A stretch of DNA of 64,000 bases from an uncultured Chloroflexia bacterium (GCA_963812115.1 CAWEUD010000043.1:123535-187534); one strand, 5' to 3'; counted from the first letter of the stretch, positions 7,190-30,448 are shown. Notes: generated by a model not told the origin, from the letters alone. A program made the numbers and translations.

Positions 7190-7398
7190 CGTTCCTCCAT
7201 GGGGTGCAGCGTCATTGGCGACGCTTCCGAAAGTCTAGCAAGGCCCGGGCCGACTCCCCCGCCAGCCGTCCAGCGCGTTCCTCGGCTATCCTGCGCCTTC
7301 ATGGCGAAACGAGGACATCGGGCATCCAGCGACGCGGACGCGCCAGCGACGCGGCGCTGCACCGCCGGGTGGGCGAAGTCGGCGGACGGACGGCAGGG

Positions 7399-7948: not shown

Positions 7949-8032
7949 GCGGATCCGGTCCGGACGGCGCCCCAGCCCGCGAGGTCATGGCCGCGCGGTT
8001 GGCGAACGCGCTGCCTGCCACCCGCCAGCGCC

Positions 8033-8230: not shown

Positions 8231-8239
8231 CATCTCCGC

Positions 8240-8314
8240 GGGCGGCTAGCTCAACGGCAGAGCAAGTGACTCTTAATCACTAGGTTCAGGGTTCGAATCC
8301 CTGGCCGCTCACCA
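8240..8314 (+). tRNA. tRNA-Lys (anticodon CTT)
   Basis: Acceptor stem GGGCGGC/GCCGCTC, D-arm GCTCAACGGCAGAGC, anticodon stem AGTGA/TCACT around loop CTCTTAA, T-arm CAGGGTTCGAATCCCTG, encoded CCA. Confidence 0.8.
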
Positions 8315-8405
8315 ATTCCGCAACTTGGGCCCGCGGCGACGGCCGACGCCACGTCCGCCCACGCAGTCCTGCGCTCCTAGCGGTCGCCGGCGGCGGGGAC
8401 GCCCG

Positions 8406-13217: not shown

Positions 13218-14569
13218 GCCTGGCACCCAATCCGCTGCGGCCGACGCCAGGTGCACCGCGGCCGTATCGCTTCCCGGAATTCGACCGACGTCGGCTGCCG
13301 AACGGCCTGACGGTCTGGTCGGTCTCACTTCCCGGCGCCACCATGGTCAACGCTCACCTGCTGGTCGACGGCGGCGCTGCGGCGGAAGACGAGGAGCACG
13401 CGGGCGTCGCCTATCTGACCGCTCAGATGCTCACCACCGGAACGCGGCGACTCGACGCGTCCGCCTTCGCCGAGGCGACCGAGCGGCTGGGGATCGAGGT
13501 CAGCTCCGAGTCCAGCTGGGACTCCGCGCGGGCGGCGTTCCAGTCACTCCCCGAGCACCTGGAGGAAGGCTTTGGGCTGCTCGCAGAGATGATCCTGGAG
13601 CCCCGGTTCGACCCCGCGGAATTCACGCGGCTGAAGGCGGAGCGGCTGAACGACATCCTCCAGTCGCGGGCGGATCCCGGGCGATTGGCCGAGGAGATGT
13701 TCCTGCGCCACGTCTTCGATCCCGAGACCCCCTACCGGCGGCTCTCGGCCGGCACGCCGGAGAGCATCGCCGCCGTCACCCTCGACGACGTGCGAGCGCA
13801 CCACGCGGCGCACTGGCAACCGGGACTCGCGCACCTGATCGTGGCCGGAGCGGTCGATCCGGAGACGATCGAACGGCTGGCGCAGATGCGGCTCGGCGCC
13901 TGGGATGGCACCGGACCGGGGCATCGGACCTTCGAGACGCGGCCGGCCGGCGGCCGCCGGGTGGTCATCGTCGACCGTCCCGGTTCGGTCCAGAGCGAGC
14001 TGCGCATGGGGCATCCGGGCATCTCCCGCACATCGGATCGCTACTTCCCGGCCATGGTCATGGCGGCCATGCTCGGCGGCGTCTTCGGCTCGCGGCTCAA
14101 CATGCGACTTCGCGAGGAACTCGGCTACACCTACGGCGCCCGCGCGGGGTTCGATGCGCGCCGCGCGGCCGGTCCCTTCTCTGCAGCGGCCGCCGTGCAG
14201 ACCGAGGTGACCGCCGATGCGATGCGCGAGATGTTCGCGCAGCTGGAGCGGGTCAGGGCGGCCGCTCCGGAACTCGCGGAGCTTCGCGAGGTCCGTGACT
14301 TCCTGATCGGTGTGTTCCCGCTCCGCTTCGAGACGACCGGCGGTGTCGCCACGGCCATCGAGCCACTCGCCATCTACGGGCTGCCCGACGACTACTGGCA
14401 GACCTATCGTCGGCAGATCGAGGCGGTCGGACCGGACGACGTCGCCGCGGCCGCGCGGGACCTCATCCGTCCCGACGCTCTCCTCATGCTGGTGACCGGC
14501 GACGCCGCGCGCATTCGGGACGAGATCGAGGCCGCGCAGCTCGCCGAGGTGGAGGTGGTCAGCGCCTGA
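13214..14569 (+). CDS. M16 family peptidase, non-catalytic partner subunit (no HxxEH)
   Basis: 451 aa, M16-like throughout. ATGA overlap with the upstream M16 gene. Confidence 0.8.
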   Translation: MSLAPNPLRPTPGAPRPYRFPEFDRRRLPNGLTVWSVSLPGATMVNAHLLVDGGAAAEDEEHAGVAYLTAQMLTTGTRRLDASAFAEATERLGIEVSSESSWDSARAAFQSLPEHLEEGFGLLAEMILEPRFDPAEFTRLKAERLNDILQSRADPGRLAEEMFLRHVFDPETPYRRLSAGTPESIAAVTLDDVRAHHAAHWQPGLAHLIVAGAVDPETIERLAQMRLGAWDGTGPGHRTFETRPAGGRRVVIVDRPGSVQSELRMGHPGISRTSDRYFPAMVMAAMLGGVFGSRLNMRLREELGYTYGARAGFDARRAAGPFSAAAAVQTEVTADAMREMFAQLERVRAAAPELAELREVRDFLIGVFPLRFETTGGVATAIEPLAIYGLPDDYWQTYRRQIEAVGPDDVAAAARDLIRPDALLMLVTGDAARIRDEIEAAQLAEVEVVSA

Positions 14570-14581
14570 CGCGCACCCGCT

Positions 14582-16039
14582 TCAGGCGTCGTCGCGTCGC
14601 GGCCATCGGAGCAGGAACACCGCCGCCGGCGCGCGCTCCTCGAGCCGGACGATGCCACCCTGCGCCTCCATGGCGGCGCGGACGAGGTACAGGCCCAGGC
14701 CAAGGCCGCGACCGGAGTTCACGCGCTCGATGAAGAGGTGCTCCGCGACGTCGTCGCTCACCCCTGGGCCGGCGTCCCGCACCCGCAGCTCCGGTGCCAC
14801 GCCACTGCTGATCTCGACCGCGATCGGCTCGCCGTCGGTGGAGTAGCGATCGGCATTGGTGAGCAGGTTGGTGAGCGCCTGCTGGGTCAGCTGGAGATCG
14901 CCGACGACCAGCGGCTCGCCGCTGACGCTGATCTCCACCTCGCGGTCACTGCCGCTCGCCCGCAGCCGCTCCACGGATGCGGACGCGGCCTCCCGCAGGT
15001 CGAATGGCTGCAGATCGGCCTCGAGGCGGCCGGCCTCGGCGCGGGAGAAGAGCTCGAGGCGGTCGAGGATGGCGATGGCCGCGTCGACCGACTCCAGCGC
15101 GCGCTGGGCGTGCGACGAGGCGCCGGAGACGGCCGTGGTCGCGCGCGCGCCCAACTCGATGCGGGCCTTGGCCACGGCCAGCGGGTTCCGCAGCTCGTGG
15201 GCGACGAAGCTCGCGAAGCGAGAGAGTCGGCGGCGTTCGTCGACCTCCTTGCCGACATCTCGGAGGAGCAGCACGCAACCGCCGTCGGGGACCGGCGTCC
15301 CCTCGACGTCGACCAGCAGGTCCTTCCCGGACATCGGTAGGCGAATGATCATGCGGCGCCTGGTGACGGCGTCCCGGGCTTGCACCTGCGGCCAGTCGTC
15401 CATCGACAGCGGTTGCCCACGGTCGTCGCGCGGTTCCGCGAGACGACCCCACTCGTCCAGGGGACGGTCGTAGAAGCTGCGGCCGAAGGTGCGCAGCGCG
15501 GCGCGGTTCGCGTAGGTTCCCCTTCCATCGGCGGCGTAGACGATGAGCGGCTCCGGGATCGCCTCGGCCACCTCCTCGAGCCGCGTGCGCTCTCGCTCGA
15601 CCTGCTGCAGCGCGTTCTGCAGATCGCGTCGCGCCTCGTCGGCGGCGCTCCGCTCGCGATTCGCCATCTGCTCGGCGGCGACACTCATGTCCCGGGCCAG
15701 CCGGCTCTCGGTGTGCTGGCGCTCAGCGCGCATGGCCAGCAGGACGATCATCGGCGCGCCGACGACGAACAGGGTCACGCGCGCCAGGTTGGCAGCGCTC
15801 ACCAGCTCGTTCTGGACGACGATCCCCTGGGCGATCAGCGACCCGCCAGCGATGGCGTAGGTCGTGACGGCGGCGGCCGGTCCCAGCGTCAGACCGACGA
15901 GCGCGACCGCGAGCAGCGGCAGCACGGCGAACGTCGACTCCCCTGTCATCTCACCGAGCACCGCCCCGCCTGCGGCGGCCAGGGCGCCAAAGGCCACCCC
16001 GGTCAGGATGCGACCGACGCCGGTGCCGCCCAGGCTCAC
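14582..16039 (-). CDS. Sensor histidine kinase: multi-TM N-terminus, coiled coil, PAS-like, HisKA, HATPase
   Basis: C-terminal HisKA motif (FASFVAHELRNPL) and HATPase motifs (N box LTNLLTNADRY, G boxes). The proposed start is a GTG at 16039 that overlaps the TGA of the upstream J-domain gene (GTGA). The 330-aa Arg/Ala-rich extension of ORF ..17038 is rejected because it overlaps the J-domain CDS. No response regulator is adjacent. Confidence 0.8.
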   Translation of the reverse strand: MSLGGTGVGRILTGVAFGALAAAGGAVLGEMTGESTFAVLPLLAVALVGLTLGPAAAVTTYAIAGGSLIAQGIVVQNELVSAANLARVTLFVVGAPMIVLLAMRAERQHTESRLARDMSVAAEQMANRERSAADEARRDLQNALQQVERERTRLEEVAEAIPEPLIVYAADGRGTYANRAALRTFGRSFYDRPLDEWGRLAEPRDDRGQPLSMDDWPQVQARDAVTRRRMIIRLPMSGKDLLVDVEGTPVPDGGCVLLLRDVGKEVDERRRLSRFASFVAHELRNPLAVAKARIELGARATTAVSGASSHAQRALESVDAAIAILDRLELFSRAEAGRLEADLQPFDLREAASASVERLRASGSDREVEISVSGEPLVVGDLQLTQQALTNLLTNADRYSTDGEPIAVEISSGVAPELRVRDAGPGVSDDVAEHLFIERVNSGRGLGLGLYLVRAAMEAQGGIVRLEERAPAAVFLLRWPRRDDA

Positions 16040-17238
16040 GGCGAGGAGGCTCCGACCGCGGCCAGCTCCTGCCTGCCGTCGCGGCGACGCGCCTCGCGCT
16101 GCTGCCGGACGCGAGCACGGGCAAGGCGCTGCCGCGCGGCCCCGATGCGTCGGATCGGGTCTCCACCGATGCGCCGCCGATCGAGCGCCTCCGGATGCTC
16201 CCCGCGCGCAATCGCCGCCAGCAGCTCGGAGGCCCGGTCGAGCTGCCCCGCTTCGGTCAGCAGCTGCACCACGCTGAACCAGCGCGAGGCTTCGCGCACG
16301 GGCTCCCGACTGACCCGTTCCACGAGCTCGGCGGCGCGGCCGGGGTGGCCGGCACGACGGTGGGCGGAGATCGCTGCCCGGACGTCGGGGAAGCTGGCCT
16401 CCATCCCGAGCGCCTCGACGAAGTTCAGCAGCAGCTCCGCCGCCTCCGCCCGGTCCTCGGGCCTGCCGCGGCGCACGCGCTGGTCGCGGAACTCGGCGAG
16501 GAGAGCGCGCAGCTCGCGATCGACCCAGCGACGCGGAGGGCTCTCGGGCGTATACCGCTGCGCCATCTCCCGAAGGAAGCCCACGCCCCGCAGGTACGAG
16601 CCAGTGAACACGTACGCCTGGCGCATGCCGGCGCGGACGAGCGTCTCGTAGCCGCCGTCCAGGCGGAGCAGGCGCTCGAGCGTCCCCAGCCAGTCGTCGT
16701 AGCGGCCGCGTTCGCGATAGTACCCGGCTGCGTAGCGCAGCCAGTAGTGCTCGGCATGCTCGCGCCAGTCCTCGCCGGCGATGTGGTGTTCCACGATCCA
16801 GGCGCCCTGCTGCGCCGGGCCGGCCATGAAGACGTCGGCCGGGACCCGGAAGCCGGCCACGTTCCGCCACTGCGGCTGGTGCCAGCGGCTCGGCCGATCG
16901 GGCTGGATGAGTCGCGGCCGGGCGCGCGCGCGGGACGGCTCGTGGGGCTCGAGTGGCCATGGCAGCGTCGCTGCCTGTCCGCGCTCCAGGGCGTGATCGT
17001 AGTGCAGCCGGCGCAGGGGGTCGCGCAGCTCCGCCCACGCGCGGTTGAGGATCGACGTTCGCCGCGTCGCGAGGCCACCGGCAGTGCTGCGATCGGGATG
17101 GTGCCGCAGGACCGCCTCGCGGAACGCGCTCCGCAGCTCGTCGACGGTCGCGGACGGCTCGGCCCCCAGCACAGCGTAGAAATCGCGCTGCTCGAGCTGC
17201 GCGTCCCGACCCTCGTCGCCCACGGATCCACCGACCAT
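16036..17238 (-). CDS. J-domain (DnaJ N-terminal domain) protein with a large alpha-helical/TPR-like C-terminal domain
   Basis: J-domain signature DFYAVLGAEPSATVDELRSAFREAVLRHHPDR near the N-terminus. The ATG at 17238 is internal to the longer ORF 16036..18069, whose upstream part is antisense to cphB. About 400 aa. Confidence 0.7.
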   Translation of the reverse strand: MVGGSVGDEGRDAQLEQRDFYAVLGAEPSATVDELRSAFREAVLRHHPDRSTAGGLATRRTSILNRAWAELRDPLRRLHYDHALERGQAATLPWPLEPHEPSRARARPRLIQPDRPSRWHQPQWRNVAGFRVPADVFMAGPAQQGAWIVEHHIAGEDWREHAEHYWLRYAAGYYRERGRYDDWLGTLERLLRLDGGYETLVRAGMRQAYVFTGSYLRGVGFLREMAQRYTPESPPRRWVDRELRALLAEFRDQRVRRGRPEDRAEAAELLLNFVEALGMEASFPDVRAAISAHRRAGHPGRAAELVERVSREPVREASRWFSVVQLLTEAGQLDRASELLAAIARGEHPEALDRRRIGGDPIRRIGAARQRLARARVRQQREARRRDGRQELAAVGASSP

Positions 17239-17304
17239 CGGATGAGCATACGACGCCCGCTCCACGTTCGCCTCGCCACCGCCATTGGGTATGCTGCCGG
17301 GCAC

Positions 17305-18297
17305 ATGGCCGCCCAGTCTCGCCCCGGCCGTGCCCGCGCCGGGCACCTGCTGATCATCGGAGGCGCGGAGGACAAGCTGCGTCAGCGGCAGATCCTCTCC
17401 CGCTTCGTCGCGCTCGCCGGCGGCGGCGACGCGCGTATCGCGGTCATCTCGACGGCATCCTCCCTCGGCGACGAGGCGACCGACCTCTACCAGTCGCTCT
17501 TCCACCAGATGGGCGTTCCCGACGTCCGCGGCCTCCGCCCCCTGACCCGCGACGAGGCGAATGACGCAGAGGTCTGCGGTGCCCTCGACGACGCGACGGG
17601 AATCTTCATGACCGGCGGCAACCAGCTTCGCCTCTCGAGCGTGATCGGGGGCACGGCGCTCGGACGCGCCATCGTGGAACGGCACCGGCGCGGCTGCATC
17701 GTGGCGGGCACCAGCGCCGGCGCCTCGGCGATCAGCAGCCATATGGTCGCCTTCGGTACCAGCGGGCCGACCCCGAAGCAGCGCATGACGCAGATGAGCG
17801 CGGGACTGGGGCTCCTGCCGGGCGTGATCATCGACCAGCACTTCGAGCAGCGGAACCGCCTTGGACGCCTGCTCGCCCTGGTGGCCCAGTCGCCCGCCCT
17901 GCTGGGGATCGGCATCGACGAGGACACGGCAGCCCTCGTGTCGCCCGCGGGCGTGGTGGAGGTCATCGGCAAGGGATCGGTCATGATCCTCGACCCGGCC
18001 CGGATCCAGACCGATGCCTACGAGGTCAAGCGCCATCGACCGATGATGATCAGTGGCGTGGTCCTCCACTCACTGCCTTCAGGCTACCGGTTCGACCTGC
18101 GCAAGCGTCGCCTGCTGGCGCCGCTGCGTCCGGTCTCGGCCAGCGAGCGGGAGCTCGCCCAGCTAGACCGTGCCGGCGCGGTCACGCGTCGGCTCATCCG
18201 CCGCATCGCCGCGGAGGGCGCGGACGATACGGCCCCCGAGCGCGCCCGGCGTCGCGAGCTCTACGCTCGTCGCAAGGAAGAGGAGGCGAGCGAGTGA
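17305..18297 (+). CDS. cphB: Cyanophycinase (peptidase S51)
   Basis: 330 aa from the ATG at 17305 with S51 cyanophycinase motifs (HLLIIGGAED, IAVISTASS, catalytic-Ser region GTSAGASAI). The upstream part of ORF 16195..18297 is antisense to the J-domain gene. Confidence 0.85.
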   Translation: MAAQSRPGRARAGHLLIIGGAEDKLRQRQILSRFVALAGGGDARIAVISTASSLGDEATDLYQSLFHQMGVPDVRGLRPLTRDEANDAEVCGALDDATGIFMTGGNQLRLSSVIGGTALGRAIVERHRRGCIVAGTSAGASAISSHMVAFGTSGPTPKQRMTQMSAGLGLLPGVIIDQHFEQRNRLGRLLALVAQSPALLGIGIDEDTAALVSPAGVVEVIGKGSVMILDPARIQTDAYEVKRHRPMMISGVVLHSLPSGYRFDLRKRRLLAPLRPVSASERELAQLDRAGAVTRRLIRRIAAEGADDTAPERARRRELYARRKEEEASE

Positions 18298-21134
18298 CAT
18301 CGGGCCGCTCGCGCTCGAAGACGCCGAGGCCGATCTCGCGTGCCTCGGTCGCCAAGGCCGAAGCCGGGAAAGGGCGGCGCGCGCGGTCGTCGCCGGCGGC
18401 GAGCCTGCGCATCCTCGAGACGCGCGTCTACCGCGGCCCGAACTACTGGAACTACGAGCCCGCGATCAAGCTCATCGTCGACCTGGGCGTGCTCGAGGAC
18501 TTCCCTTCCAACACGATTCCCGGCTTCGTCGACGGCCTGCTCGACATGCTCCCCGGCATCGGGCAGCACTCGTGCTCCACGGGCAAGGCGGGGGGCTTCG
18601 AGCAGCGGCTGCGCGAGGGAACGTGGGCCGGGCACGTTGCCGAGCACATCGCCCTGCAGCTGCAGCGCGACGCAGGCACCGAGGTTGGTCGTGGCAAGAC
18701 CCGCAGCACCGGGGAGCCCGGACGCTACCACGTCGTCTACTCGTACGCGGAGGAGTCCGTCGGCCTGGCAGCCGGTCGCCTCGCCGTCCGAACCGTCAAC
18801 CACCTCGTCGAACCCGACCCCGACTTCGACTTCGTCGCCGATTTCGAGCGGCTCGTCCTGCTCGCCGAGCGCGCTGCGTTCGGACCCTCGACGCAGTCGA
18901 TCCTGGACGAGGCCGCGCTGCGCGACATCCCCTCCATTCGGCTCAACGAACAGTCGCTCGTGCAGCTGGGCCACGGGGTCCACCAGCGCCGGATCCGCGC
19001 CACCATGACCAGCCAGACCAGCTCGCTGGGCGTCGACATCGCGTCGGACAAGAAGCTGACGAACAAGCTGCTCGGCGGCGCCGGCGCCCCCGTGCCGCGC
19101 GCCAAGGTCGTGGGCAGCGAGGAGGACGCAGTCGCGGCGGCGATCAGCATCGGCTTCCCGGTGGCGGTCAAGCCGCTCGACGGCAACCACGGGCGCGGCG
19201 TCATGCTGAACCTGTCCGACGAGGGCGCCGTGCGAGCCGGCTACGCACACGCTCGCTCGGAATCGCGCCGCGGCGGCGTGGTGGTCGAGACGTTCCTGGC
19301 AGGCAATGACTACCGCTGCCTCGTCGTCGGCGGCACGCTGCGAGCGGTGGCACAGCGGGTGCCGGCCCACGTCGTCGGCGACGGCGAGCACTCGCTGAGC
19401 GAACTGGTCGAGCAGACCAACCTCGACCCGCGACGCGGCATCGGCCACGAGAAGGTCCTGACCCGAATCAAGGTCGACGAGGAATCGATCTCCTACGCCC
19501 GCGAGCAGGGGTTCGAGCTGAGTGACGTGCCCCCGCGCGGCGTCCGTGTCTTCCTCAAGCGCACCGGCAACATGAGCACCGGCGGGATCAGCATCGACCG
19601 GACAGAGGAGATCCACCCCGACAACGCCGAGATCGCCGAGCTGGCCGCGCGGGTGGTCGGGCTCGACATTGCCGGCATCGACTTCATCTGTCCGGACATC
19701 AGCGTCCCGGTGCGGGAAACCGGCGGCGGGATCGTCGAGGTCAATGCGGCGCCCGGGTTCCGGATGCACACCCACCCGACCGAGGGCGAGGCGCAGTACG
19801 TGGCCAAGCCGGTCATCGACATGCTCTTCCCGCCGGGTTCGCCATCGCGGATCCCGATCGTGGCGGTCACCGGCACGAACGGCAAGACGACGACGGCCCG
19901 GATGATCGCCCACGTCATGAAAGGCATGGGCCGCAAGGTCGGCATGACCTCCACCGATGGGATCTTCGTGGACGGACGGCCGGTGCGACGTGGTGACATG
20001 TCCGGGCCGCGCTCCGCCTCGACCGTGCTGCAGAACCCGAACGTCGACTTCGCCGTCTTCGAGGTGGCACGCGGCGGCATCCTGCGCGAGGGCCTCGGCT
20101 ACCAGCGCAACGACGTGGCGGTCGTCCTCAACGTGACCGGCGACCACCTTGGGCTGGGCGGGATCACCTCGCTGCGGCAGCTCGCCGCGGTGAAGCAGGT
20201 GGTCGTGGAGGCGGTCCCCCGCGACGGCGTGGCGGTGCTCAACGCCGACGACCCGCTGGTTGCGCCGATGGGGCGCCACTGCTCCGGCTCGGTGATCTAC
20301 TTCAGCATGAACGCCGAGAACGAGCTGGTGCGCCGTCAGGCCTCGCGCGGCCGGCGTGCCGTCACCCTCGAACCCGGTCACAACGGGGAGATGATCGTCC
20401 TGCGCCAGGGCCGCAAATCGATGCCGCTGGTCTGGACCCACCTCCTGCCGGCGACCTTCGAGGGCAGGGCGCGCATGAACGTCCAGAACGCACTTGCGGC
20501 GACGGCCGCGGCGTGGGCCGCCGGGGCACACCTGCACGACATCCGACAGGGCCTGCGGACCTTCACGACCAGCTACTTCATGGCGCCCGGCCGCCTCAAC
20601 GTGTTCGAGCTGGACGGCTACCGCGTGGTCGTCGACTACGCCCACAATCCGCCGGCGGTCGCGGCACTGGGAGAGTTCGTCGATTCGATGGCCAGGCCGT
20701 CGCCGGGTGGCAGCCGGCCGCTGGTGACGGGACGGCGGATCGGCGTCATCGCCACCGCGGGCGACCGGCGGGACGAGGACATCGTGGAGCTCGGCAGGAC
20801 GGCCGCGCGCTACTTCGACACGATGATCGTCCGCGAGGACGCCAATAGCCGCGGCCGCGCGCCCGGCGATACGGCTGCGCTGATCGAACGCGGCGCGCGC
20901 GAGGCGATGAGCGACGGAGCCCGCTGCGCGGAGGTGACCACCATGCTCGATGAGCTCGAAGCCACCCGCCACGCCCTGGACATGGGATCCGAGGGCGACA
21001 TCGTGGTGGTCTGCGTCGACCACGCCAACGACGTCTGGAAGGAACTGCAGCATCGACAGCACGGCGGATCGAGCGCTGGTGCCCCGGGCTTCCGGGCAGT
21101 GACCGGCCTCGCCGAGTCGGAGGTCGAGCTCTAG
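18294..21134 (+). CDS. cphA: Cyanophycin synthetase CphA (complete N, ATP-grasp G and Mur-ligase M domains)
   Basis: 946 aa: N domain (LRILETRVYRGPNYWNYEPAIKLIVDL), ATP-grasp (AVKPLDGNHGRGV, EVNAAPG), M domain P-loop VTGTNGKTTTARM. The GTG start overlaps the cphB stop (GTGA) and is preceded by GAGGAGG. Confidence 0.9.
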   Translation: MTSGRSRSKTPRPISRASVAKAEAGKGRRARSSPAASLRILETRVYRGPNYWNYEPAIKLIVDLGVLEDFPSNTIPGFVDGLLDMLPGIGQHSCSTGKAGGFEQRLREGTWAGHVAEHIALQLQRDAGTEVGRGKTRSTGEPGRYHVVYSYAEESVGLAAGRLAVRTVNHLVEPDPDFDFVADFERLVLLAERAAFGPSTQSILDEAALRDIPSIRLNEQSLVQLGHGVHQRRIRATMTSQTSSLGVDIASDKKLTNKLLGGAGAPVPRAKVVGSEEDAVAAAISIGFPVAVKPLDGNHGRGVMLNLSDEGAVRAGYAHARSESRRGGVVVETFLAGNDYRCLVVGGTLRAVAQRVPAHVVGDGEHSLSELVEQTNLDPRRGIGHEKVLTRIKVDEESISYAREQGFELSDVPPRGVRVFLKRTGNMSTGGISIDRTEEIHPDNAEIAELAARVVGLDIAGIDFICPDISVPVRETGGGIVEVNAAPGFRMHTHPTEGEAQYVAKPVIDMLFPPGSPSRIPIVAVTGTNGKTTTARMIAHVMKGMGRKVGMTSTDGIFVDGRPVRRGDMSGPRSASTVLQNPNVDFAVFEVARGGILREGLGYQRNDVAVVLNVTGDHLGLGGITSLRQLAAVKQVVVEAVPRDGVAVLNADDPLVAPMGRHCSGSVIYFSMNAENELVRRQASRGRRAVTLEPGHNGEMIVLRQGRKSMPLVWTHLLPATFEGRARMNVQNALAATAAAWAAGAHLHDIRQGLRTFTTSYFMAPGRLNVFELDGYRVVVDYAHNPPAVAALGEFVDSMARPSPGGSRPLVTGRRIGVIATAGDRRDEDIVELGRTAARYFDTMIVREDANSRGRAPGDTAALIERGAREAMSDGARCAEVTTMLDELEATRHALDMGSEGDIVVVCVDHANDVWKELQHRQHGGSSAGAPGFRAVTGLAESEVEL

Positions 21135-22744
21135 CTGCCGGCAGCCGCCACCAACTCGCCCAGCTGCTGTGGCGGGACCGCGTTGAATCCCTCGTCTCCG
21201 AGCCAGGAGAAGATTTCGCCGCGCTCGACGTGCGACATGACCGCCACGAGGTCTCCGCGCCGGGACCGCGAGAGCAGCGCCTGCAGCGCGGACAGCTCGC
21301 TGGGATGGGCCGGCATCTCGTCGCGGTAGCCGCCGTCGGCAGCACCGCGACGGAAGATCTCGTTCATCGCCTCCAGGTCCCGCCCGCGCAGGTAGTGACG
21401 CTTCTCGCAGATGACGACATCGTCGGCCCCCTGGCCGGCCAGCCGACCCAGGTTGTGCAGGACCTCATCGGTCCTGTCGCCGGCCGTGCCGAGCGCGAGC
21501 CGAACCTGACCGCGGCCGCCGACCAGCCCGCGGCAGACCTCCAGCAGCCCACGCAGCCCCGCTTCGTTGTGGGCGAAGTCGATCAGGACCAGCAGGCCAC
21601 CCCGCTCGTAGAGGTTCATCCGGCCCGGGTTGGCGACGCTGTCCTGGGTAAAGGTGCGCAGTCCCGCCCGGATCCGCGCCGGACGAATGCCCAGGGCGTC
21701 AGCCCCCGCAGCGGCAGCCAGCGCATTCGCCACGTTGTAGGTCGAGAGCCCGCCGAAGGTGACCGGTATCTCTGCCAGCGGAGCCAGCCGCAGGGGACGC
21801 CTTGCGCCGCGCAGCAGGGTCAGCCAACCGTCCTTCAGCACGGCGGCGCGACCGCCCGCTTCGAGCGCCTGGCGCACACCGTCCGCTTCCGGAGAGAGAC
21901 TGAACGCGTAGCGGGCAGCCCTCGTCCAGCGGCGCATCGCCCAGACCCGCTCGTCCTCCGCGTTGAGTACGGCCCACCCACTGCGCCGCGTGATGCGGAC
22001 GATGGCGCCCTTCACCTCGGCCAGCTCGTCGAGCGTGTCGATGCCCTGCAGTCCCAGGTGGTCGGCGCTCACGTTCGTGACGATGGAGACGTCGTTGGCG
22101 CCGTAGCCGATGCCGCGCAGGAGGATGCCGCCGCGCGCCGTCTCGAGGACGGCGAGGTCGATCCCATCCTCGGCCAGGACGCGACCGGCGCCACCGAAGC
22201 CGGTCCAGTCCCCCGCCTCCACCAACTTCCCGTCGACGAAGATGCCGTCGGAGTTCGTCATCCCAACCCGCCTGCCCGCCGTGGTGGCAATGTGGGCCAG
22301 CAGTCGGGTGGTCGTGCTCTTGCCGTTGGTCCCGGTGATCGCCACGATCGGCACGCGTGCCGCGGGGAGGCTCGGGAGCGGACCGAGCGCCATCGCCCGC
22401 AGGCCCCGCAGCTCGCGCCGTTCGCTGCTGGCACCCGCTGCGATGCGGGCCGCGGATGCCCCGACCGCCTGGGAGATCGTCCGCCGATGCCAGGGGTAGG
22501 CCACCAGGGCCCGCCGGCCGTCCGCAGATCCGCGCCGCGCGATGCGCGGCACGGGCAGGTCCAGGAGCGCGTGAAGACGCTGGACGGCCTCACCGGCGGC
22601 GACGCTCGTCTCGTCCGCCAGACCGGGCTCGATGGCGCCGAACTCGAGCTTGATCGCCGGCCGCCTGAAGAACCGGTTGGGGCCGTCGAGGACGCGCAGT
22701 TCCAGGAGCTCCACGTCGCCGTCCGAGCGCCCGTCCTGCGGCAT
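21131..22744 (-). CDS. Cyanophycin-synthetase-like Mur ligase family protein lacking the ATP-grasp domain (CphA N domain + M domain only)
   Basis: The N-terminal segment LELRVLDGPNRFFRRPAIKLEF parallels the CphA N domain. It is followed directly by the Mur-ligase P-loop ITGTNGKSTT, then DHLGLQ and a C-terminal Mur ligase domain. There is no ATP-grasp motif. The start is ambiguous (22744 MPQDG vs 22792), so coordinates are +/-1 to 48 nt. Convergent with cphA. Confidence 0.75.
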   Translation of the reverse strand: MPQDGRSDGDVELLELRVLDGPNRFFRRPAIKLEFGAIEPGLADETSVAAGEAVQRLHALLDLPVPRIARRGSADGRRALVAYPWHRRTISQAVGASAARIAAGASSERRELRGLRAMALGPLPSLPAARVPIVAITGTNGKSTTTRLLAHIATTAGRRVGMTNSDGIFVDGKLVEAGDWTGFGGAGRVLAEDGIDLAVLETARGGILLRGIGYGANDVSIVTNVSADHLGLQGIDTLDELAEVKGAIVRITRRSGWAVLNAEDERVWAMRRWTRAARYAFSLSPEADGVRQALEAGGRAAVLKDGWLTLLRGARRPLRLAPLAEIPVTFGGLSTYNVANALAAAAGADALGIRPARIRAGLRTFTQDSVANPGRMNLYERGGLLVLIDFAHNEAGLRGLLEVCRGLVGGRGQVRLALGTAGDRTDEVLHNLGRLAGQGADDVVICEKRHYLRGRDLEAMNEIFRRGAADGGYRDEMPAHPSELSALQALLSRSRRGDLVAVMSHVERGEIFSWLGDEGFNAVPPQQLGELVAAAGS

Positions 22745-22767
22745 GGCCGGCAGTATACTCACGCGCC

Positions 22768-23928
22768 ATGCCGATCCCGCCGGACCTGCCACAGGCCGTC
22801 AGGGCCCGATACCCGCGCTACCTGGCGGAGCTCGAATCCCTGGTCAACGTCGACTGCGGCTCGCACACGCCGCCTGGCGTCAATCGCATCGCGGATGCGG
22901 TGGCCGAGTCCCTCGCAGAGCTTGGAGCGAGCGTGGAGCGCCGCTCGCCGGAGCCCGGGCAGCCCCTCGGAGATCTCGTCATCGGCCGCCTCATCGGCGA
23001 GGGCTCCCGACTGCTGCTCATCGGCCACATGGACACGGTCTTCGAGCCCGGGACGGTGGCCGAGCGGCCGTTTCGGGTGGAGGGCGAACGGGCGCTCGGT
23101 CCGGGCACGAGCGACATGAAGGGCGGGCTGCTGGCGGGCCTGCACGCGGTGGCTGCGCTGCACGAGATCGGCATCCGGCCGACCATCACCTTCGTCGCGA
23201 ATCCGGACGAGGAGATCGGCTCGCCGTTCAGCACGCCGCACATCCGCGAACTGGTCCCCGAACACGATGCCGCACTGGTGCTCGAGTGTGCCCGGGCCAA
23301 CGGCGATATCGTCAGCGCACGGAAAGGCATCGCAGACCTGGAGGTCACCTTCACGGGCCGGGCCGCGCACGCGGGCGTGGAGCCGGAGAAGGGACGCTCC
23401 GCGATCCTGGCGGCTGCGCGCCAGGTCGTGGCGCTCGAGGACCTCAACGGTCGATGGCCGGGCGTCACGCTGAACGCCGGCGTGATCCGTGGTGGAACGC
23501 GCCCGAACGTGGTCGCCGCCGAGTGCCGGCTGACGCTCGATCTGCGTGCCGCGGCCGCCGACGCCTTCGATGCGGCCATGGAGGAAGTCGAGCGGCTGCT
23601 GCACTCCCCCTCCGTCGACGGCGTGCATGTCGAGCTGCAACGGCTGGCCGCGCACCCGCCGATGGAGAAGTCGCCGGCCACGGCCCGGCTGGCCGACCTC
23701 GCGCACGGCCTCGCAGCCGAGCTCGGGTTCGACCTTCGCGATGCCGCGACCGGGGGAGCGTCGGACGCCAACACCACCGCGGCCGCGGGGCTGCCGACAC
23801 TCGACGGGCTGGGGCCGATCGGGGGCGACGATCACTCTGCCGACGAGTGGCTGGACCTTTCGAGCGTCGTCCCGCGCGTGACGCTCCTCGCGGCGCTGAT
23901 AGCGTCGGCGGAGCGGGCGCTGGCCTGA
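22768..23928 (+). CDS. M20 family metallopeptidase (carboxypeptidase G2 / glutamate carboxypeptidase-like)
   Basis: 386 aa. Metal-binding motifs HMDTV, PGTSDMKGG and NPDEEIGS, and a dimerisation domain. Divergent from the G-less cphA paralog, with starts about 25 nt apart. Confidence 0.85.
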   Translation: MPIPPDLPQAVRARYPRYLAELESLVNVDCGSHTPPGVNRIADAVAESLAELGASVERRSPEPGQPLGDLVIGRLIGEGSRLLLIGHMDTVFEPGTVAERPFRVEGERALGPGTSDMKGGLLAGLHAVAALHEIGIRPTITFVANPDEEIGSPFSTPHIRELVPEHDAALVLECARANGDIVSARKGIADLEVTFTGRAAHAGVEPEKGRSAILAAARQVVALEDLNGRWPGVTLNAGVIRGGTRPNVVAAECRLTLDLRAAAADAFDAAMEEVERLLHSPSVDGVHVELQRLAAHPPMEKSPATARLADLAHGLAAELGFDLRDAATGGASDANTTAAAGLPTLDGLGPIGGDDHSADEWLDLSSVVPRVTLLAALIASAERALA

Positions 23929-23978: not shown

Positions 23979-24428
23979 GTGAGCGATGACTTCCGCCACA
24001 GCACGCCCGTCCAGGTGCGGTTCCGCGACATCGATGCGTTCGGCCACGTGAACAACGCGGTCGTCTCCACCTACGTGGAGCTGGCGCGGGTAAGCTACCT
24101 GCGCGACGTGCTGAAGCTGGACCCGGTGGGGCCGCTGAACCGGATGCCGCTGATCCTGGGCATGATCAGGATCGACTACGAGTCTCCGATCTTCCTGGCC
24201 GACGCCGTGCAGGTCGGATCGCGCGTGGAGTGGATCGGCCGCAGCAGCATCTCGATGTCGCACCGGCTGGTTGCCGAATCCGGGCGCGACCTGGCGCGGG
24301 CGACATCGGTCCTGGTGGCGTACGACTACGGGCAGGCACGGCCCATGCCGGTGCCTGATGATTGGCGCACCGCGCTGGCCGCCCACGAGGGGCGCGCCCT
24401 GGAGCGCCCGCAGCAGGGAGAGGCATGA
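23979..24428 (+). CDS. Acyl-CoA thioesterase (hotdog fold, 4HBT/YbgC-like)
   Basis: 149 aa: RFRDIDAFGHVNNAVVSTYVELAR. GTG start. Its stop overlaps the lpd ATG (ATGA). Confidence 0.75.
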   Translation: MSDDFRHSTPVQVRFRDIDAFGHVNNAVVSTYVELARVSYLRDVLKLDPVGPLNRMPLILGMIRIDYESPIFLADAVQVGSRVEWIGRSSISMSHRLVAESGRDLARATSVLVAYDYGQARPMPVPDDWRTALAAHEGRALERPQQGEA

Positions 24429-25845
24429 CCGACGAGCGACGCTACGACCTCCTGATCCTCGGTGGCGGGATGAGCTACGTGGGCGCCATCCGCGCCGCCC
24501 AGCTCGGCCTGAAGGTGGGCCTCGTCGAGCGCGACGCGCTGGGCGGCACCTGCCTCAACCGCGGCTGCATCCCGTCGAAGGCGCTGCTCGAGACCGCCGA
24601 CCTGCTGCACCGGGTGACGGAGCAGGGCCACGAGTTCGGTCTCGCCGGCAGCGACGGCGTCTCCCTCGACTACGGCCCGCTCGGCGAGCGACGAGATGCG
24701 GTGGTCGAGAAGCACGTCCGCGGCGTCGAGTTCCTGATGAAGAAGAACGGCATCGACGTCCTGCACGGCCAGGGCACTCTCACCGGCCCGACCAGCGTGC
24801 GCGTCTCCGGGGGCGAGTCGGGCGAGCTCCAGGCGAGCGCCACCGACCTCATCCTGGCGACCGGCTCGGCGCCGCGCTCCCTGCCGGGACTGGAGCCGGA
24901 CGGCGAGCGGATCATCACCAGCGACGAGGCGCTCAAGCGCAACGACGTGCCGGCACGGGTGACGATCGTGGGGGCGGGCGCCATCGGCGTCGAGTGGGCG
25001 TCCATGTACCGCGACTTCGGCTCGGAGGTCACGCTGGTCGAGTTCCTGGACCGCGTGGTCCCCCTCGAGGACGCGGACGTCAGCAAGGAGCTGAACCGGG
25101 TCTTCCGCAAGCGCGGCATCGCGATCCACACCGCCTCGACGATCGACACCGAGAGCATCCAGCGCTCCGATGACGGGCTCACCTTCAGCGTCAAGGCCAA
25201 CGAGGGCGACAGGCGGACCGATGTAGGGGCGGACATCATCCTGGTGGCGGTCGGGCGCCGACCGCTGACCGATGAGCATCGGCCTGGAGCAGATCGACGG
25301 CCTGCAGATGGAGCGCGGCTACGTCAAGGTCGACGAGTACATGCGGACCGGCGTCCCGCACCTCTACGCCATCGGCGACATCGTGCCGGGCTTCGCCCTG
25401 GCGCACGTGGCGGCGCACGAGAGCGTGGTGGCGGTCGAGACGATCGCCGGGCACGACCCGGAGCCGGTCCGCTCGGACCTCATGCCGCGGGTCACCTTCT
25501 GCCGGCCGCAGATCGGCAGCGTGGGCCTGACCGAGGCAGAGGCGCGCGAGGCCGGCCACGAGGTGAAGACCGGCCAGTTCCCGTTCCGGGCGCTCGGCAA
25601 GGCGACCATCGTCGGCGAGATCGACGGCTTCGCCAAGTTCGTGGCCGATGCGGGCACCGGGATGCTGCTGGGCGCGCACATCATCGGCGCCGCACGCCGG
25701 CGACCTGCTGCCGGAGCCGACCCTGGCGCTGCTGGTGGAGGGGACCGCGGCCGAGATCGCCATGAGCGTCCACGCCCACCCGACGCTCCCCGAAGTCCTG
25801 GCCGAGGCCGCCATGGCGGTCGACGGCGACGCGATCCACGTCTAG
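24425..25845 (+). CDS. lpd: Dihydrolipoyl dehydrogenase (E3), with two apparent +1 frameshifts (about 25283-25290 and 25690-25700)
   Basis: The N-terminus (MTDERRYDLLILGGGMSYVGAIRAAQLG...GGTCLNRGCIPSK) is in frame 2, the middle (GIGLEQIDGLQMERGYVKVDEYMRTGVPHLYAIGD) in frame 3, and the C-terminus (HAGDLLPEPTLALLVEG...HAHPTLPEV) in frame 1. Confidence 0.8.
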
Positions 25846-25861
25846 GAGAAGGAGGCAGGCA

Positions 25862-26876
25862 GTGGCAACCACCGACACCAGGGCCCGCCACCTCGAGCTC
25901 GGCCTGACCGACGACGACGTGCTCGACATGTACCGCACGATGCTGCTGGCACGGGCCGTCGACGAGCGGATGTGGCTCATGCAGCGTGCCGGCAAGATCG
26001 CCTTCATCATCTCGGGCCAGGGCCACGAGGGGGCGCAGGTCGCCACCGCCTGGCCGCTGCGCAAGAACCAGGACTGGATGGCGCCCGTACTACCGCAGCA
26101 TCGCGTCGACGATCGCGTTCGGGATGAGCGCGGAGGACATCATCACCGCCCACCTGGCCAAGGGAGACGACGTCAGCTCCGGCGGACGCCAGATGCCGGG
26201 CCACTACGGGGCCGCGCCGTTCAACATCGTCAGCCTCTCGTCGCCGGTCGGGACGCAGGTCCTGCACGCGGTCGGGATGGCCATGGGTGCCTGGGTGCGC
26301 GGCGACGACGTGGTGGCGCTCACGACCTACGGCGAGGGGACCAGCAACCAGGGCGAGATCCACGAGGCGATGAACTTTGCCGGCGTCCACAGGCTGCCGG
26401 TCATCTTCGTCTGCGAGAACAACGGCTACGCGATCAGCGTCCCGCTCGAGAAGCAGGTTGGCGGGATGAGCGTGGCGGCGCGGGCGCAGGGCTACGGATT
26501 CCCGGGTGTTCGGGTCGACGGCTCGGACCCGCTGGCCTGCTACGCGGCCGCCAAGGATGCCCACGAGCGGGCACGTCGCGGTGATGGGCCGACCCTGATC
26601 GAGGCGCGGGTGGTCCGCCTGACCAGCCACTCCTCGGACGACGACCAGCGCCGCTACCGTGACCCCGCCGAGGTCGAGGCGCTCAAGGAGCAGGATCCGC
26701 TGGCGCGCTTCGGCGCGCAGCTGCGGAGCGCCGGCATCCTGGACGACGAGCGCGAGGACGAGCTTCGCGCGCAGATCAAGGCGGCGGTCAACGACGCCAG
26801 CCGTCGGGCGGAGGCGCGCCCGGAGCCCGATGTCTCGCAGGCCGCACGCCACGTGTACGCGGACGGGGAGGCCTGA
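25862..26876 (+). CDS. 2-oxoacid dehydrogenase E1 component alpha subunit (PDH/BCKDH-type), with a +1 frameshift near 26084-26087
   Basis: Frame 2 gives MATTDTRARHLELGLTDDDVLDMYRTMLLARAVDERM...NQDWMAP. Frame 3 continues YYRSIASTIAFGMSAEDII...TYGEGTSNQGEIHEAMNFAG (the TPP-binding region). There is an extra nucleotide inside gcgcccgtac. Confidence 0.8.
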
Positions 26877-26880
26877 GCCG

Positions 26881-27867
26881 ATGGCGACGCAGAACATCCT
26901 GGAGGCGATCCGCTCCGCCATGGACGAGGAGATGGAGCGCGACGAGCTGGTGATGGTGCTGGGCGAGGACGTGGGCAAGAAGGGCGGCGTCTTCGGGACG
27001 ACTGACGGCCTCTTCGCCAAGTACGGCGAGAAGCGGGTCCTCGACACGCCGCTGACCGAGGCCATGATCGCCGGAGCGGCCTGCGGCGCGGCGATGTACG
27101 GGCTGCGGCCCATCGCCGAGATGCAGTTCGCCGACTTCGTCTACCCCGCGTTCAACCAGATCGTCTCGGAGATCAGCCGCATGCGCTACCGATCCAACGG
27201 CACGTTCGGCCTGCCGATGGTGATCCGCATGCCGTATGGCGGCGGCGTGCACGGCGCCCTCTACCACTCGCAGTCGAACGAGGCGTACTTCACCTCGACG
27301 GTCGGGCTCAAGGTCGTGGCGCCCGGCACGCCGGCCGACGCCAAGGGACTGCTCAAGGCGGCGGTCCGCGACCCTGACCCGGTCATGTTCTTCGAGCACA
27401 AGAAGACCTACCGGCTCTTCAGGGCCGAGGTGCCCGACGGTGACCACCTGGTCCCCATCGGCGCTGCCGAGATCGCGCGCGCCGGGAAGGACCTGTCGAT
27501 CTTCTGCTACGGCTACATGCGCACCTGCGCCTTGGAGGCGGCGGAGACGCTGGCGCGCGAGGACGGCGTGGAGGCGGAGGTCGTGGACCTGCGCACGCTG
27601 CGACCGCTTGACACGGACACGGTCCTCGGCTCGGTGCGCCGCACCGGCAAGGCGCTCGTCGTCCACGAGGCGAACCGCTTCGGTGGATTCGGTGCCGAGA
27701 TCGCTGCGGAGATCGCCGAGAAGGCGTTCGAGAGCCTGGACGGGCCCGTGACGCGGCTGGCCGGACCCGAGGTTCCGGGCGTCCCCTACCACCACGACCT
27801 CGAGGAGTGGTTCATGCTGAACCCTGCCAAGATCGTGGACGCGGCGCGCGAACTCGCGGCCTACTGA
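26881..27867 (+). CDS. 2-oxoacid dehydrogenase E1 component beta subunit
   Basis: Intact 328-aa protein starting MATQNILEAIRSAMDEEMERDE, with transketolase-like pyrimidine-binding and C-terminal domains. Confidence 0.9.
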   Translation: MATQNILEAIRSAMDEEMERDELVMVLGEDVGKKGGVFGTTDGLFAKYGEKRVLDTPLTEAMIAGAACGAAMYGLRPIAEMQFADFVYPAFNQIVSEISRMRYRSNGTFGLPMVIRMPYGGGVHGALYHSQSNEAYFTSTVGLKVVAPGTPADAKGLLKAAVRDPDPVMFFEHKKTYRLFRAEVPDGDHLVPIGAAEIARAGKDLSIFCYGYMRTCALEAAETLAREDGVEAEVVDLRTLRPLDTDTVLGSVRRTGKALVVHEANRFGGFGAEIAAEIAEKAFESLDGPVTRLAGPEVPGVPYHHDLEEWFMLNPAKIVDAARELAAY

Positions 27868-27971
27868 CCGATGCTTGCCGGGCCCGGCGCTGTTCGCCAG
27901 ACTAGGACCGCAACCGACGATACCCGCCCGGCACCTGCTGCCGGTCACGAACTGAGGAGCCTGTAGAACCG

Positions 27972-29456: not shown

Positions 29457-29551
29457 GGAGGGCACAATCGGTGACCCTGAGCGAGCGGGCGTCGACCGCC
29501 GACGCGAGCGATCCGCTCGAGGGGCCATCGGCCGAGGCGCGCGATCGCGTC

Positions 29552-29569
29552 GATCCCCTGGCGGGGATC
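29552..29569. terminator. GC-rich hairpin GATCCCC-tggc-GGGGATC between the convergent E2 and alkD-like genes; possible bidirectional terminator
   Basis: Perfect 7-bp stem with a 4-nt loop. No T-run, which is common in high-GC genomes. Weak call. Confidence 0.2.
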
Positions 29570-29649
29570 CGGGCGCACTTCCCGGAGCCGGATGCGCCGG
29601 CTGGTGGGCGACGGCAACTACCGCCGGGTCGACGCGTCCGGGCGGCGCA

Positions 29650-30396: not shown

Positions 30397-30448
30397 GAAG
30401 GGAGTCTAGCGGGCGCCTGGGGGCCTTCGCGGGCACCCGGGCAGGACG

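Follow-up and report, generated by a model that had tools for sequence, protein, structure and literature searches.

The gene for cyanophycin synthetase 1, cphA1, is present in ~6% of complete bacterial genomes and is clustered with a cyanophycinase gene in 81% of the genomes having both (PMC10206079). In the non-cyanobacterial clusters of Acinetobacter baylyi and Desulfitobacterium hafniense, a three-domain CphA1 and an S51-family cyanophycinase (CphB) are encoded side by side (PMC10206079). Here we describe a related locus in a stretch of 64,000 nucleotides from an uncultured Chloroflexia bacterium (GCA_963812115.1 CAWEUD010000043.1:123535-187534; the whole stretch is referred to as the window). 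The same two genes are adjacent in the window, but, unlike in those clusters, the order is cphB then cphA1, the genes overlap by 4 nt, both proteins carry extensions, and two extra conserved genes are present. One encodes a CphA paralog in which a CphA-type N domain is joined directly to a Mur-ligase-type M domain with no G domain in between (hereafter N-M), and the other encodes a metallopeptidase of the M20 family (hereafter M20).

Two bodies of earlier work bear on these additional genes. Among CphA paralogs, the CphA2 proteins of cyanobacteria consist of N, G, and a truncated, inactive M domain and polymerise β-Asp-Arg dipeptides (PMC10273328). The classes of Füser and Steinbüchel (2007), as tabulated in Table S2 of PMC3646047, also include "cyanophycin ligase-like" proteins in Groups VII and X. 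According to that table, Group VII proteins with consecutive accessions adjoin the CphAs of Group VI in Colwellia, Francisella, Congregibacter, and NOR5-3 (YP_268602 beside CphA YP_268601 in Colwellia psychrerythraea, YP_170102 beside YP_170103 in Francisella tularensis), and in actinobacteria a protein of Group X is encoded near the CphAs of Group IX, with pairs in Janibacter, Kribbella, and Nakamurella. As for degradation, it has been argued that several clades must have isoaspartyl dipeptidases that are yet to be discovered, and S9, M14, and cocaine-esterase-like proteins have been named as candidate families, M20 not being among them (Sharon and Schmeing 2023).

Our analysis leads us to propose, with a slight lean in its favour, that cphB, cphA1, N-M, and M20 make up a conserved cyanophycin module of four genes in a bacterium of the Limnocylindria class (Chloroflexota). 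The roles assigned to CphA1 and CphB rest on membership in curated, experimentally characterised families; a ligase role for N-M and a dipeptidase role for M20 are what we infer from the evidence below. In our model, CphA1, with three active sites including the primer site of its N domain, would polymerise Asp and Arg into cyanophycin, and CphB, made from the same mRNA by way of the overlap between the two genes, would cut the polymer into β-aspartyl dipeptides. M20 would most likely split N-(β-aspartyl)-amino-acid dipeptides into free amino acids as the third step, a step done by IadA, IaaA, or CphZ in other bacteria. N-M would be a Mur-ligase-type enzyme, driven by ATP, in which only the side-chain half-reaction of cyanophycin synthesis is left; most likely, free Asp β-carboxylates on cyanophycin chains or fragments would be the sites at which it adds an amino acid. 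The features of the locus are listed in Table 1.

Table 1 Features of the cyanophycin locus and its upstream neighbours, in window positions.
Feature	Position (nt)	Strand	Basis
Sensor histidine kinase, 485 aa	14582-16039	-	HATPase_c 54.1, HisKA 32.3, PAS_8 31.4 bits
GTGA, kinase GTG start in the stop of the J-domain gene	16036-16039	-	Read from sequence; same device as cphB-cphA1
J-domain protein, ~400-409 aa, alternative ATG 17238	16036-17265	-	PF00226 46.4 bits, residues 28-90; HPD motif
TATGCT, -10-like hexamer 9 nt before cphB ATG	17290-17295	+	Read from sequence
cphB, cyanophycinase (peptidase S51), 330 aa	17305-18297	+	TIGR02069, PF03575, PDB 7uqv
GTGA, cphA1 GTG start in cphB TGA stop	18294-18297	+	Read from sequence
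cphA1, three-domain cyanophycin synthetase 1, 946 aa	18294-21134	+	TIGR02068, Pfam
Cx19HxxEH motif of the CphA1 N domain, C94...H114-V-A-E-H118	18573-18647	+	Regular expression on translation
CTAG, overlapping stop codons of convergent cphA1 and N-M	21131-21134		Read from sequence; also in L001
N-M "half-synthetase", G-less CphA paralog, 537 aa	21131-22744	-	TIGR02068 partial, PDB profile, AlphaFold 2/Foldseek, hhalign
Two remodelled Mlid loops of N-M, E447-K-R-H-Y-L-R-G-R455 and S504-H-V-E-R-G509	21218-21406	-	Profile alignment to MurE
M-domain catalytic core of N-M, TGTNGK (aa 137-142), Glu201 in LETARGG, Asp228-His229 in ADHLG	22052-22336	-	Alignment
Palindrome AGTATACT, putative TATACT -10-like box on both strands, in the 23-bp N-M/M20 gap, 7-8 nt from each ATG	22752-22759		Read from sequence
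M20A di-zinc metallopeptidase, carboxypeptidase-G2 type, 386 aa	22768-23928	+	Pfam, PRK06133, PDB 1cg2

At the ~70% GC of the window, mechanical lists of open reading frames (ORFs) are full of spurious frames. Identical public gene calls on a 189.7-kb contig fix the boundaries of cphA1 (946 aa), N-M (537 aa), and M20 (386 aa). With matches above curated thresholds, the genes of the cluster are real by sequence and not chance ORFs. The closest named homologs of the window proteins belong to Candidatus Limnocylindria/Limnocylindrales (Chloroflexota), so that the source is not a cyanobacterium. A first-pass annotation of the window had reported cphB, cphA, a convergent G-less paralog, a divergent M20 gene, and an upstream divergent pair of J-domain and histidine kinase genes in an apparently non-cyanobacterial, high-GC genome, and we recover every one of these genes and the same kind of source. 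Its remark that this is not a stray cphA also agrees with our finding that the four-gene core is kept across relatives. It had further called the locus complete: the genes are indeed there, while completeness hangs on M20 acting as a β-Asp-Arg dipeptidase, which is a proposal of ours. For the comparisons below, relatives' loci (L-numbered) came from scanning one genome per GTDB species together with two metagenome contigs.

CphB matches the cyanophycinase model TIGR02069 over positions 1-250 of 250 with 258 bits (curated equivalog cutoff 126.6) and PF03575 with 90.1 bits, and its whole catalytic domain aligns with the solved cyanophycinase PDB 7uqv at 217 bits. The motifs GTSAGAS (aa 135), DQHF (aa 177), and DEDT (aa 205) are conserved in this alignment, in which the segments GTSAGAS, IDQHFEQRNRLGRL, and GIDEDTA are identical or conservative matches to 7uqv. 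We take the aligned motifs to be the catalytic Ser, His, and Glu and the Arg-rich specificity segment of cyanophycinases. CphB continues for ~60 aa past the TIGR02069 model in a C-terminal extension rich in Arg, Glu, and Ala, and CphA1 has a basic N-terminal extension of ~37 aa ahead of its model start (18294-18404); in the close relative L001, the homologs of both proteins are equal in length to those of the window.

CphA1 matches TIGR02068 at 1153.8 bits (cutoff 850) over model positions 1-861 of 862. Its N, G, and M domains span residues ~38-199, ~200-515, and ~516-946, respectively, and the corresponding Pfam matches are PF18921 (59-172), RimK/ATP-grasp (~250-356), Mur_ligase_M (525-740), and Mur_ligase_C (766-907). 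The M domain contains TGTNGK at 526-531 and DHLG at 617-620. The motif Cx19HxxEH marks the metallopeptidase of the N domain that generates primers and occurs in 83% of CphA1s (PMC9262961). In the M domain of characterised CphA1, the double mutant D585A/H586A is inactive (PMC9262961), and catalytic roles have been assigned to K499, T500, T522, and E558 (PMC9427784). Because CphA1 of the window keeps Cx19HxxEH, the P-loop Lys, and the Asp-His pair, it is predicted to be a functional, primer-independent synthetase.

The GTG start of cphA1 lies within the TGA stop of cphB, as the first reading of the sequence had claimed. This 4-nt overlap is kept in 11 related loci (L001-L004, L007-L011, L013, and L015) and is also found in two unrelated ones (L048 and L070), and the arrangement itself indicates translational coupling of the two genes. 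Co-transcription of the two genes, together with the two extra enzymes, had been taken earlier to suggest a dynamically regulated nitrogen/carbon reserve. Since clustering is the usual arrangement in genomes having both genes, the pairing needs no special explanation; the cphB-cphA1 core is ordinary, and we see in it no evidence of unusual regulation.

N-M is the more unusual component. Its start was taken as the ATG of the public gene calls (MPQD...); the mechanical ORF runs on to 22792. Its match to TIGR02068 is confined to model positions 476-848 and reaches 379 bits (cutoff 850), which confirms that the G domain is absent, and no ATP-grasp domain was detected in the protein with Pfam; the earlier description as a G-less CphA paralog is thus upheld. 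What remains is a CphA-type N domain (aa ~10-125; 22370-22717) followed by a full Mur-ligase M domain (aa ~130-537). The M domain is the easier of the two to recognise: searched against the PDB, the family profile matches residues 486-854 of SuCphA1 at 318.9 bits and MurE at ~74 bits, and the AlphaFold 2 model of N-M (mean predicted local distance difference test score, pLDDT, 83.7) has CphA1 M domains as its best Foldseek matches.

The N domain has diverged further. PF18921 was not detected by Pfam in the first 125 residues, and BLASTP gave only a match of 41 aa at E 1e-4. In a plain MAFFT alignment with CphA1, the N-terminus appeared to be the end of a G domain, an assignment that was overturned by profile-profile alignment and by a structure search with the domain only. 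The N-terminal family profile aligns with CphA1 residues 31-199 in hhalign with a probability of 98% and E 1e-13 to 4e-15, and the model of the isolated domain (pLDDT 89) has CphA1 or CphA2 as all of its top 14 PDB Foldseek matches (E 9e-5 to 7e-3), among them the CphA2 structures 8fxh, 8fxi, and 7ta5. In the hhalign alignment, ~40 aa including the motif Cys are deleted relative to CphA1, and HxxEH is replaced by AAGEA. Lacking both the Cys and HxxEH, the N domain of N-M cannot be the metallopeptidase; it keeps the helices that follow the lost motif, with conserved Arg-rich helices. In CphA1, the N domain binds polymer and forms the polymer groove together with Mcore (PMC9262961, PMC9427784).

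The catalytic core of the M domain is intact. K142, E201, D228, and H229 are at least 85% conserved both in the N-M family and in CphA1, and by equivalence with the CphA1 residues of PMC9427784, Glu201 is predicted to bind Mg. With the N domain and all M-domain catalytic residues kept, the parts for the side-chain half-reaction are all present; since the G domain and the peptidase site are gone, N-M most likely ligates onto the Asp β-carboxylate. N-M is therefore like CphA2 in being a truncated CphA paralog with a non-catalytic N domain and a single predicted ligase activity, and opposite to it in architecture, having N plus a complete M domain with an intact active site and no G. Assignment of N-M to CphA1 fails on the G domain and on the full-length TIGR02068 match, and assignment to CphA2 fails because the G domain is missing and the M domain is full length (Mcore, Mlid, and catalytic residues). 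N-M shares with MurE (E. coli 1e8c) the Mur central and C-terminal domains, the DNPR Arg, the GDR motif, and the P-loop. Unlike MurE, its N domain is of the CphA type and not UDP-MurNAc-binding, and the D and N of DNPR are replaced. With 99.8 bits against the murE model TIGR01085, below the cutoff of 257.3, and a CphA-type N domain, N-M was also rejected as a peptidoglycan Mur ligase (MurE, MurF).

That N-M may differ in function from the M domain of CphA1 is suggested by two loops of Mlid whose counterparts in MurE bind the incoming amino acid. The MurE DNPR motif (D413-R416) was verified on the E. coli structure 1e8c and aligned by hhalign to CphA1 and N-M. Its Arg corresponds to an invariant Arg in both groups, and the RGR after the loop is invariant in both as well. 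Just upstream of this Arg, CphA1s have Asp in 69 of 85 sequences (the equivalent of 448) and Asn or Asp in 63 of 85, and N-M has Lys, Thr, or Leu (448) and His or Arg at these two positions. A Tyr is inserted at 451 in 92 of 117 N-M-labelled sequences and is absent from 78 of the 85 CphA1s. The second loop lies near the GKGHE segment of MurE; here the equivalent of 505 is Asp or Glu in 79 of 85 CphA1s and His, Leu, or Gln in N-M, which also carries an insertion. Recurrent charge changes relative to CphA1 affect positions 176, 210, 425, 428, 448, and 505. As the loops for the amino acid are rebuilt and the acidic residues of CphA1 are lost, the amino acid or the acceptor of N-M is probably not the same as that of the CphA1 M domain, and on the strength of this alignment we infer that N-M does not bind arginine as CphA1 does.

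N-M belongs to a sizeable family. An exhaustive search of 1.84 billion representatives returned 1,290 matches at E <=1e-30, and the best 150 of them include 69 proteins that are 500-620 aa long and have their P-loop 100-230 residues in from the N-terminus. The layout with N joined directly to M is found in 69 representatives at 50% identity, at lengths of ~510-620 aa, and clustering at this threshold divides the family into at least ~70 groups. When M domains were placed in a neighbour-joining tree, a single split parted 100 of the 117 N-M-labelled sequences from 82 of the 85 CphA1s (182 of 202 consistent); ~17 of the N-M-labelled sequences appear to be truncated CphA1 ORFs that were mislabelled, and several of the exceptions carry CphA1 signature residues. 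As these ~17 fragments sat in the N-M set, no position came out as differently conserved at >=80% in N-M and CphA1. Inspection locus by locus gave a signature of E/D176, W/Y180, G185, R210, no Asp at 448, and an inserted Tyr451, which the window N-M carries as E176, W180, G185, R210, K448, and Y451. Split genes in metagenome-assembled genomes (MAGs) from long reads gave a few false calls of stand-alone M domains. In the long-read MAG contigs L002, L008, and L083, cphA1, cphB, or M20 is broken into fragments in different frames, and these breaks are probably assembly indels and not true pseudogenes.

The conservation of the family effectively refutes the idea that the G-less gene is a decaying, functionless remnant of a duplicated cphA, to which we give next to no credence. 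The reading frame is intact, with a GC content at third codon positions of 0.88, like that of the neighbouring genes, and the AlphaFold 2 model is confident; moreover, full-length homologs (510-620 aa) number in the hundreds, share invariant catalytic residues, and fall into many 50% clusters in several phyla. A second candidate, in which N-M makes up for a CphA1 whose M domain is dead or whose primer site is missing, was likewise rejected: of 38 CphA1s encoded beside N-M, 35 have Cx19HxxEH and 37 have the DH pair, just like unpartnered CphA1s. A more serious contender, which we nevertheless regard as unlikely, is that N-M carries out the same chemistry as the CphA1 M domain, adding Arg or Lys onto the terminal Asp β-carboxylate as a booster or a CphA1-docking subunit and making no new product. 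As a booster, it would accelerate the addition of Arg or rescue chains that come loose once the G step is done. Such a role would fit the retention of all catalytic residues and of the N domain, the 41-42% identity between N-M and the adjacent CphA1 M domain, the RGR shared by both groups, and the tight linkage of the N-M and cphA1 genes. It sits poorly with charge changes that are family-wide at the six positions named above and accompanied by an insertion in both Mlid loops, and with the parting of N-M from CphA1 in the tree, which points to an old functional divergence; since the M domains of the partner CphA1s are intact, redundancy would also need another rationale.

N-M genes are found almost always beside cphA1. 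Among 50 stand-alone N-M loci, cphA1 lies in the fetched flank of 46 (39 convergent, 7 tandem) and cphB is present in 37; of the four loci without cphA1, L017 and L051 are cut by a contig end, and L012 and L066 have flanking sequence with no cphA1 in it. Their hosts belong to Chloroflexota, Actinomycetota, Gammaproteobacteria, Myxococcota, and Rhodothermales. Cultured strains of the genera Colwellia, Cognaticolwellia, and Vibrio encode proteins of 565-620 aa with Mur_ligase_M and Mur_ligase_C and no G domain, annotated in the Proteobacteria only as "Mur ligase (family protein)" or "hypothetical", and the window N-M is 32-37% identical to this proteobacterial branch. In the neighbour-joining tree, the related protein of an uncultured Marinomonas (L061) and other N-M-like genes of Proteobacteria, Myxococcota, and Rhodothermales are placed with N-M. 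An N-M-like gene follows cphA1 in L061 and in L083, the order in the latter being cphB, cphA1, N-M-like. Judged by the Colwellia homologs, the gene order in L083, and the adjacent accessions in the table, Groups VII and X are probably the N-M family. Like the members of these groups, N-M of the window is a second CphA-related gene beside cphA; unlike them, it is convergent with cphA1 and not tandem, and unlike the proteobacterial and actinobacterial clusters, it is paired with M20. In two Actinomycetota MAGs, L011 (1416-6658) and L013 (104-4478), genes for a class-III aminotransferase and an MFS_3 (EntS-like) transporter directly precede N-M in the same direction and take the place of M20 beside it. 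The N-M family may thus act in different pathways in different phyla.

In a full-text literature search, with subscription-only literature outside it, we found no biochemical or functional study of any N-M member and no paper that gives the N+M architecture, links M20 to cyanophycin, or reports cyanophycin in Limnocylindria. The same search yielded no characterisation of G-less or truncated CphA paralogs or of Francisella cphB, the matches to "CphA3" being β-lactamases of Aeromonas.

M20 has the catalytic domain PF01546 (107.8 bits) and the dimerisation domain PF07687 (84 bits) and aligns over residues 9-378 with carboxypeptidase G2 (CPG2) of Pseudomonas sp. RS-16 (PDB 1cg2) at E 6e-52. The motifs GHMDTV, SDMKGG, PDEEIGS, LECAR, and DDHS align with 1cg2, and presumably they represent the di-zinc ligands of CPG2 (His, Asp, Glu, Glu, His) and its catalytic Glu. 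M20 is thus like CPG2 in its dimerisation domain and in its metal-ligand and catalytic Glu motifs, and unlike it in gene context, which is cyanophycin and not folate. In β-Asp-Arg, an amino acid is N-acylated and its C-terminal carboxylate is free, and compounds of this class are the substrates of relatives of CPG2, ArgE, and DapE. Within ~15 kb on either side, we found no gene of the IadA, IaaA, or CphZ type, and M20 itself matches only M20-family models. CphZ has likewise been recruited from the desuccinylase/aspartoacylase family (Sharon and Schmeing 2023). Based on the shared substrate class, the precedent of CphZ, and the lack of another dipeptidase nearby, we propose M20 as a candidate β-Asp-X dipeptide hydrolase. 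In this proposed role, the hydrolysis of β-Asp-Arg or β-Asp-Lys released by cyanophycinase, M20 would resemble IadA, IaaA, and CphZ, and like CphZ, which is also encoded together with cphA and cphB, it would have been recruited from enzymes that cleave N-acyl amino acids. Unlike IadA (an amidohydrolase), IaaA (an Ntn hydrolase), and CphZ (M14/AstE-AspA), M20A has an unrelated fold and family.

The association of M20 with the module can be followed across loci. Among 43 loci with enough flanking sequence, M20 is divergent from N-M and at most 1.2 kb away from it in 26, down to 39% N-M identity. In the window, M20 is followed on the same strand (23979-31516) by genes for a 4HBT thioesterase and for E3, E1α, E1β, and E2 of a 2-oxoacid dehydrogenase complex; the same stretch holds a DNA-alkylation-repair gene on the opposite strand and then lipoyl synthase, and this gene order is limited to relatives whose N-M is at least 63% identical. 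M20 might accordingly be unrelated to cyanophycin, either as the first gene of a thioesterase/2-oxoacid-dehydrogenase operon or as a housekeeping amidohydrolase like ArgE, DapE, or CPG2 that is there by chance. The co-directional genes directly after M20 in the window and its close relatives would agree with this, as would the lack of M20 in the N-M clusters of other phyla and its scores under all curated family cutoffs. The operon version is weakened by the 16 most distant of the 26 loci, in Chloroflexota, with N-M 39-51% and M20 50-59% identical to those of the window, in which the divergent M20 stays while the thioesterase and dehydrogenase genes are gone. Two of these 16, L021 (6296-6688) and L024 (6324-6713), have instead a gene of the RidA/YjgF family (Ribonuc_L-PSP) after M20; in these two, a GT87 glycosyltransferase-like gene divergent from cphB occupies the place of the J-domain gene. 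Because M20 stays with N-M when the downstream operon is lost, its conserved partner is the cyanophycin module, and we regard an M20 unrelated to cyanophycin as rather improbable.

The junctions between the genes give some hints about expression. The convergent genes cphA1 and N-M end in overlapping stop codons, and N-M is hence not co-transcribed with cphB and cphA1. A scan of 14-30 kb of the window, including this junction and the region upstream of cphB, found no terminator-like site or consensus promoter, and scans with Rfam and for tRNAs gave no match inside the cyanophycin cluster. With overlapping stops, no intergenic space, and no terminator, the cphA1 and N-M transcripts must run into each other, an arrangement that would allow antisense or transcriptional interference at the junction. 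On the other side of N-M, a single palindromic box appears to serve as a putative -10 element for both N-M and M20. The [GA/AA]TATACT box is kept in L001-L007 and L015, and distant loci have TAGACT 6-9 nt before the M20 ATG. No Shine-Dalgarno sequence is visible before M20, N-M, or cphB (22745-22767 and 17266-17304) or in the relatives' gaps (L001-L007, L015, and L019-L046); together with the -10-like hexamers 7-9 nt ahead of the start codons, this suggests that the mRNAs of these genes are leaderless.

This shared box in a gap of only 23 bp also fits an explanation in which N-M and M20 belong to a small-molecule pathway of their own that merely lies beside the cyanophycin genes, neither enzyme acting on the polymer. 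N-M would then join two free amino acids into a dipeptide of the β-aspartyl or a similar type, which could serve as compatible solute or primer or be exported, and M20 would hydrolyse it. CPG2-type enzymes do act on small N-acyl amino acids, and the position of N-M directly downstream of an aminotransferase and an exporter-type transporter in L011 and L013 points the same way. Set against this are the CphA-type N domain of N-M with its conserved Arg-rich helices, a domain that binds polymer in CphA1, and the near-obligate adjacency of N-M to cphA1 across five phyla, which a separate pathway would hardly explain; we consider such a pathway quite improbable.

Some of our observations count against the four-gene module as we have drawn it. 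M20 is below every curated NCBIfam cutoff, the best match being the PRK06133 glutamate carboxypeptidases at 304.5 against 349 bits, so that it is a relative and not an assigned member of that family, and its nearest characterised relative cleaves C-terminal glutamate and not arginine. The N-M clusters of Actinomycetota, Thermomicrobiales, and Proteobacteria lack an M20 gene, so that its partnership with N-M is not obligate, and the aminotransferase and MFS_3 context in L011 and L013 hints at a small exported product and not a polymer. As regards the pocket, position 448 varies inside the N-M family (K, T, L, N) and may not be a tight specificity determinant; moreover, the equation of the loop with MurE DNPR comes from profile alignment, in which the register is off by one residue between CphA1 and N-M. 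Finally, the convergent genes with overlapping stops could mean antagonistic and not joint expression of N-M and cphB-cphA1.

Upstream of cphB, the J-domain and histidine kinase genes are present as first described, identified by PF00226 with the HPD motif and by PAS, HisKA, and HATPase_c domains, respectively. The J-domain ortholog in L001 has 409 aa; the kinase was taken as 485 aa, the length of its L001 ortholog, the mechanical ORF of 818 aa being over-extended at its 5' end. This pair is syntenic only in close relatives (N-M at least 63% identical) and is absent from distant clusters that have the other four genes, and a regulatory link to cyanophycin is therefore weak. Overall, the first-pass annotation was right on gene identities, on the GTGA coupling, and on the G-less nature of the paralog, and its interpretation is partly supported. 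Beyond the kinase lie tandem genes for M16 (insulinase-type) peptidases (11910-14569), also syntenic only in close relatives. The N domain of CphA1 has been described as distantly M16-like; the M16 pair is probably unrelated to cyanophycin. On the basis of their narrow synteny, both pairs were rejected as members of the cluster. The remainder of the upstream region (1-11571) is housekeeping, with genes for an MscS-type channel, ClpX, ClpP, trigger factor, an adenylate/guanylate cyclase domain protein, tRNA-Leu, tRNA-Lys, a GDE_N_bis/MGH1-like glycoside hydrolase, and a GT1-family (Glycos_transf_1) glycosyltransferase.

Within the four-gene module, the replacement of Asp/Glu in the N-M pocket by Lys/Thr/Leu and His/Arg, together with a nearest characterised relative of M20 that removes C-terminal glutamate, makes it tempting to speculate that N-M and M20 act as a write/erase pair for a non-arginine side chain, possibly an acidic or neutral amino acid. 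We attach only a low probability to this specific version. If true, it would give rise to a cyanophycin-like polymer with mixed side chains and a tunable nitrogen-to-carbon content, and N-M would be the M-only counterpart of the G-only CphA2. If N-M does alter the composition of the polymer, it would also be of interest for the engineering of cyanophycin as a biopolymer, in which the side chains control solubility.

Taken alone, the cphB-cphA1 pair does little more than widen the range of cyanophycin storage to include Limnocylindria, an uncultured class of Chloroflexota that is abundant in soil and freshwater. The value of the locus lies in its two accessory genes, a half-synthetase with a rebuilt pocket and a conserved M20 peptidase. 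Many clades that encode cyanophycin metabolism have no known dipeptidase (Sharon and Schmeing 2023), and M20 peptidases of the CPG2 type would be a new candidate family for this step. As for N-M, a second CphA-like gene, probably of the same family, has, according to the tabulated classes, been listed beside cphA since 2007 in Colwellia, Francisella, and actinobacteria; now found in Chloroflexota as well, it acquires a concrete biochemical hypothesis, namely that of a ligase that may act on the Asp β-carboxylates of cyanophycin.

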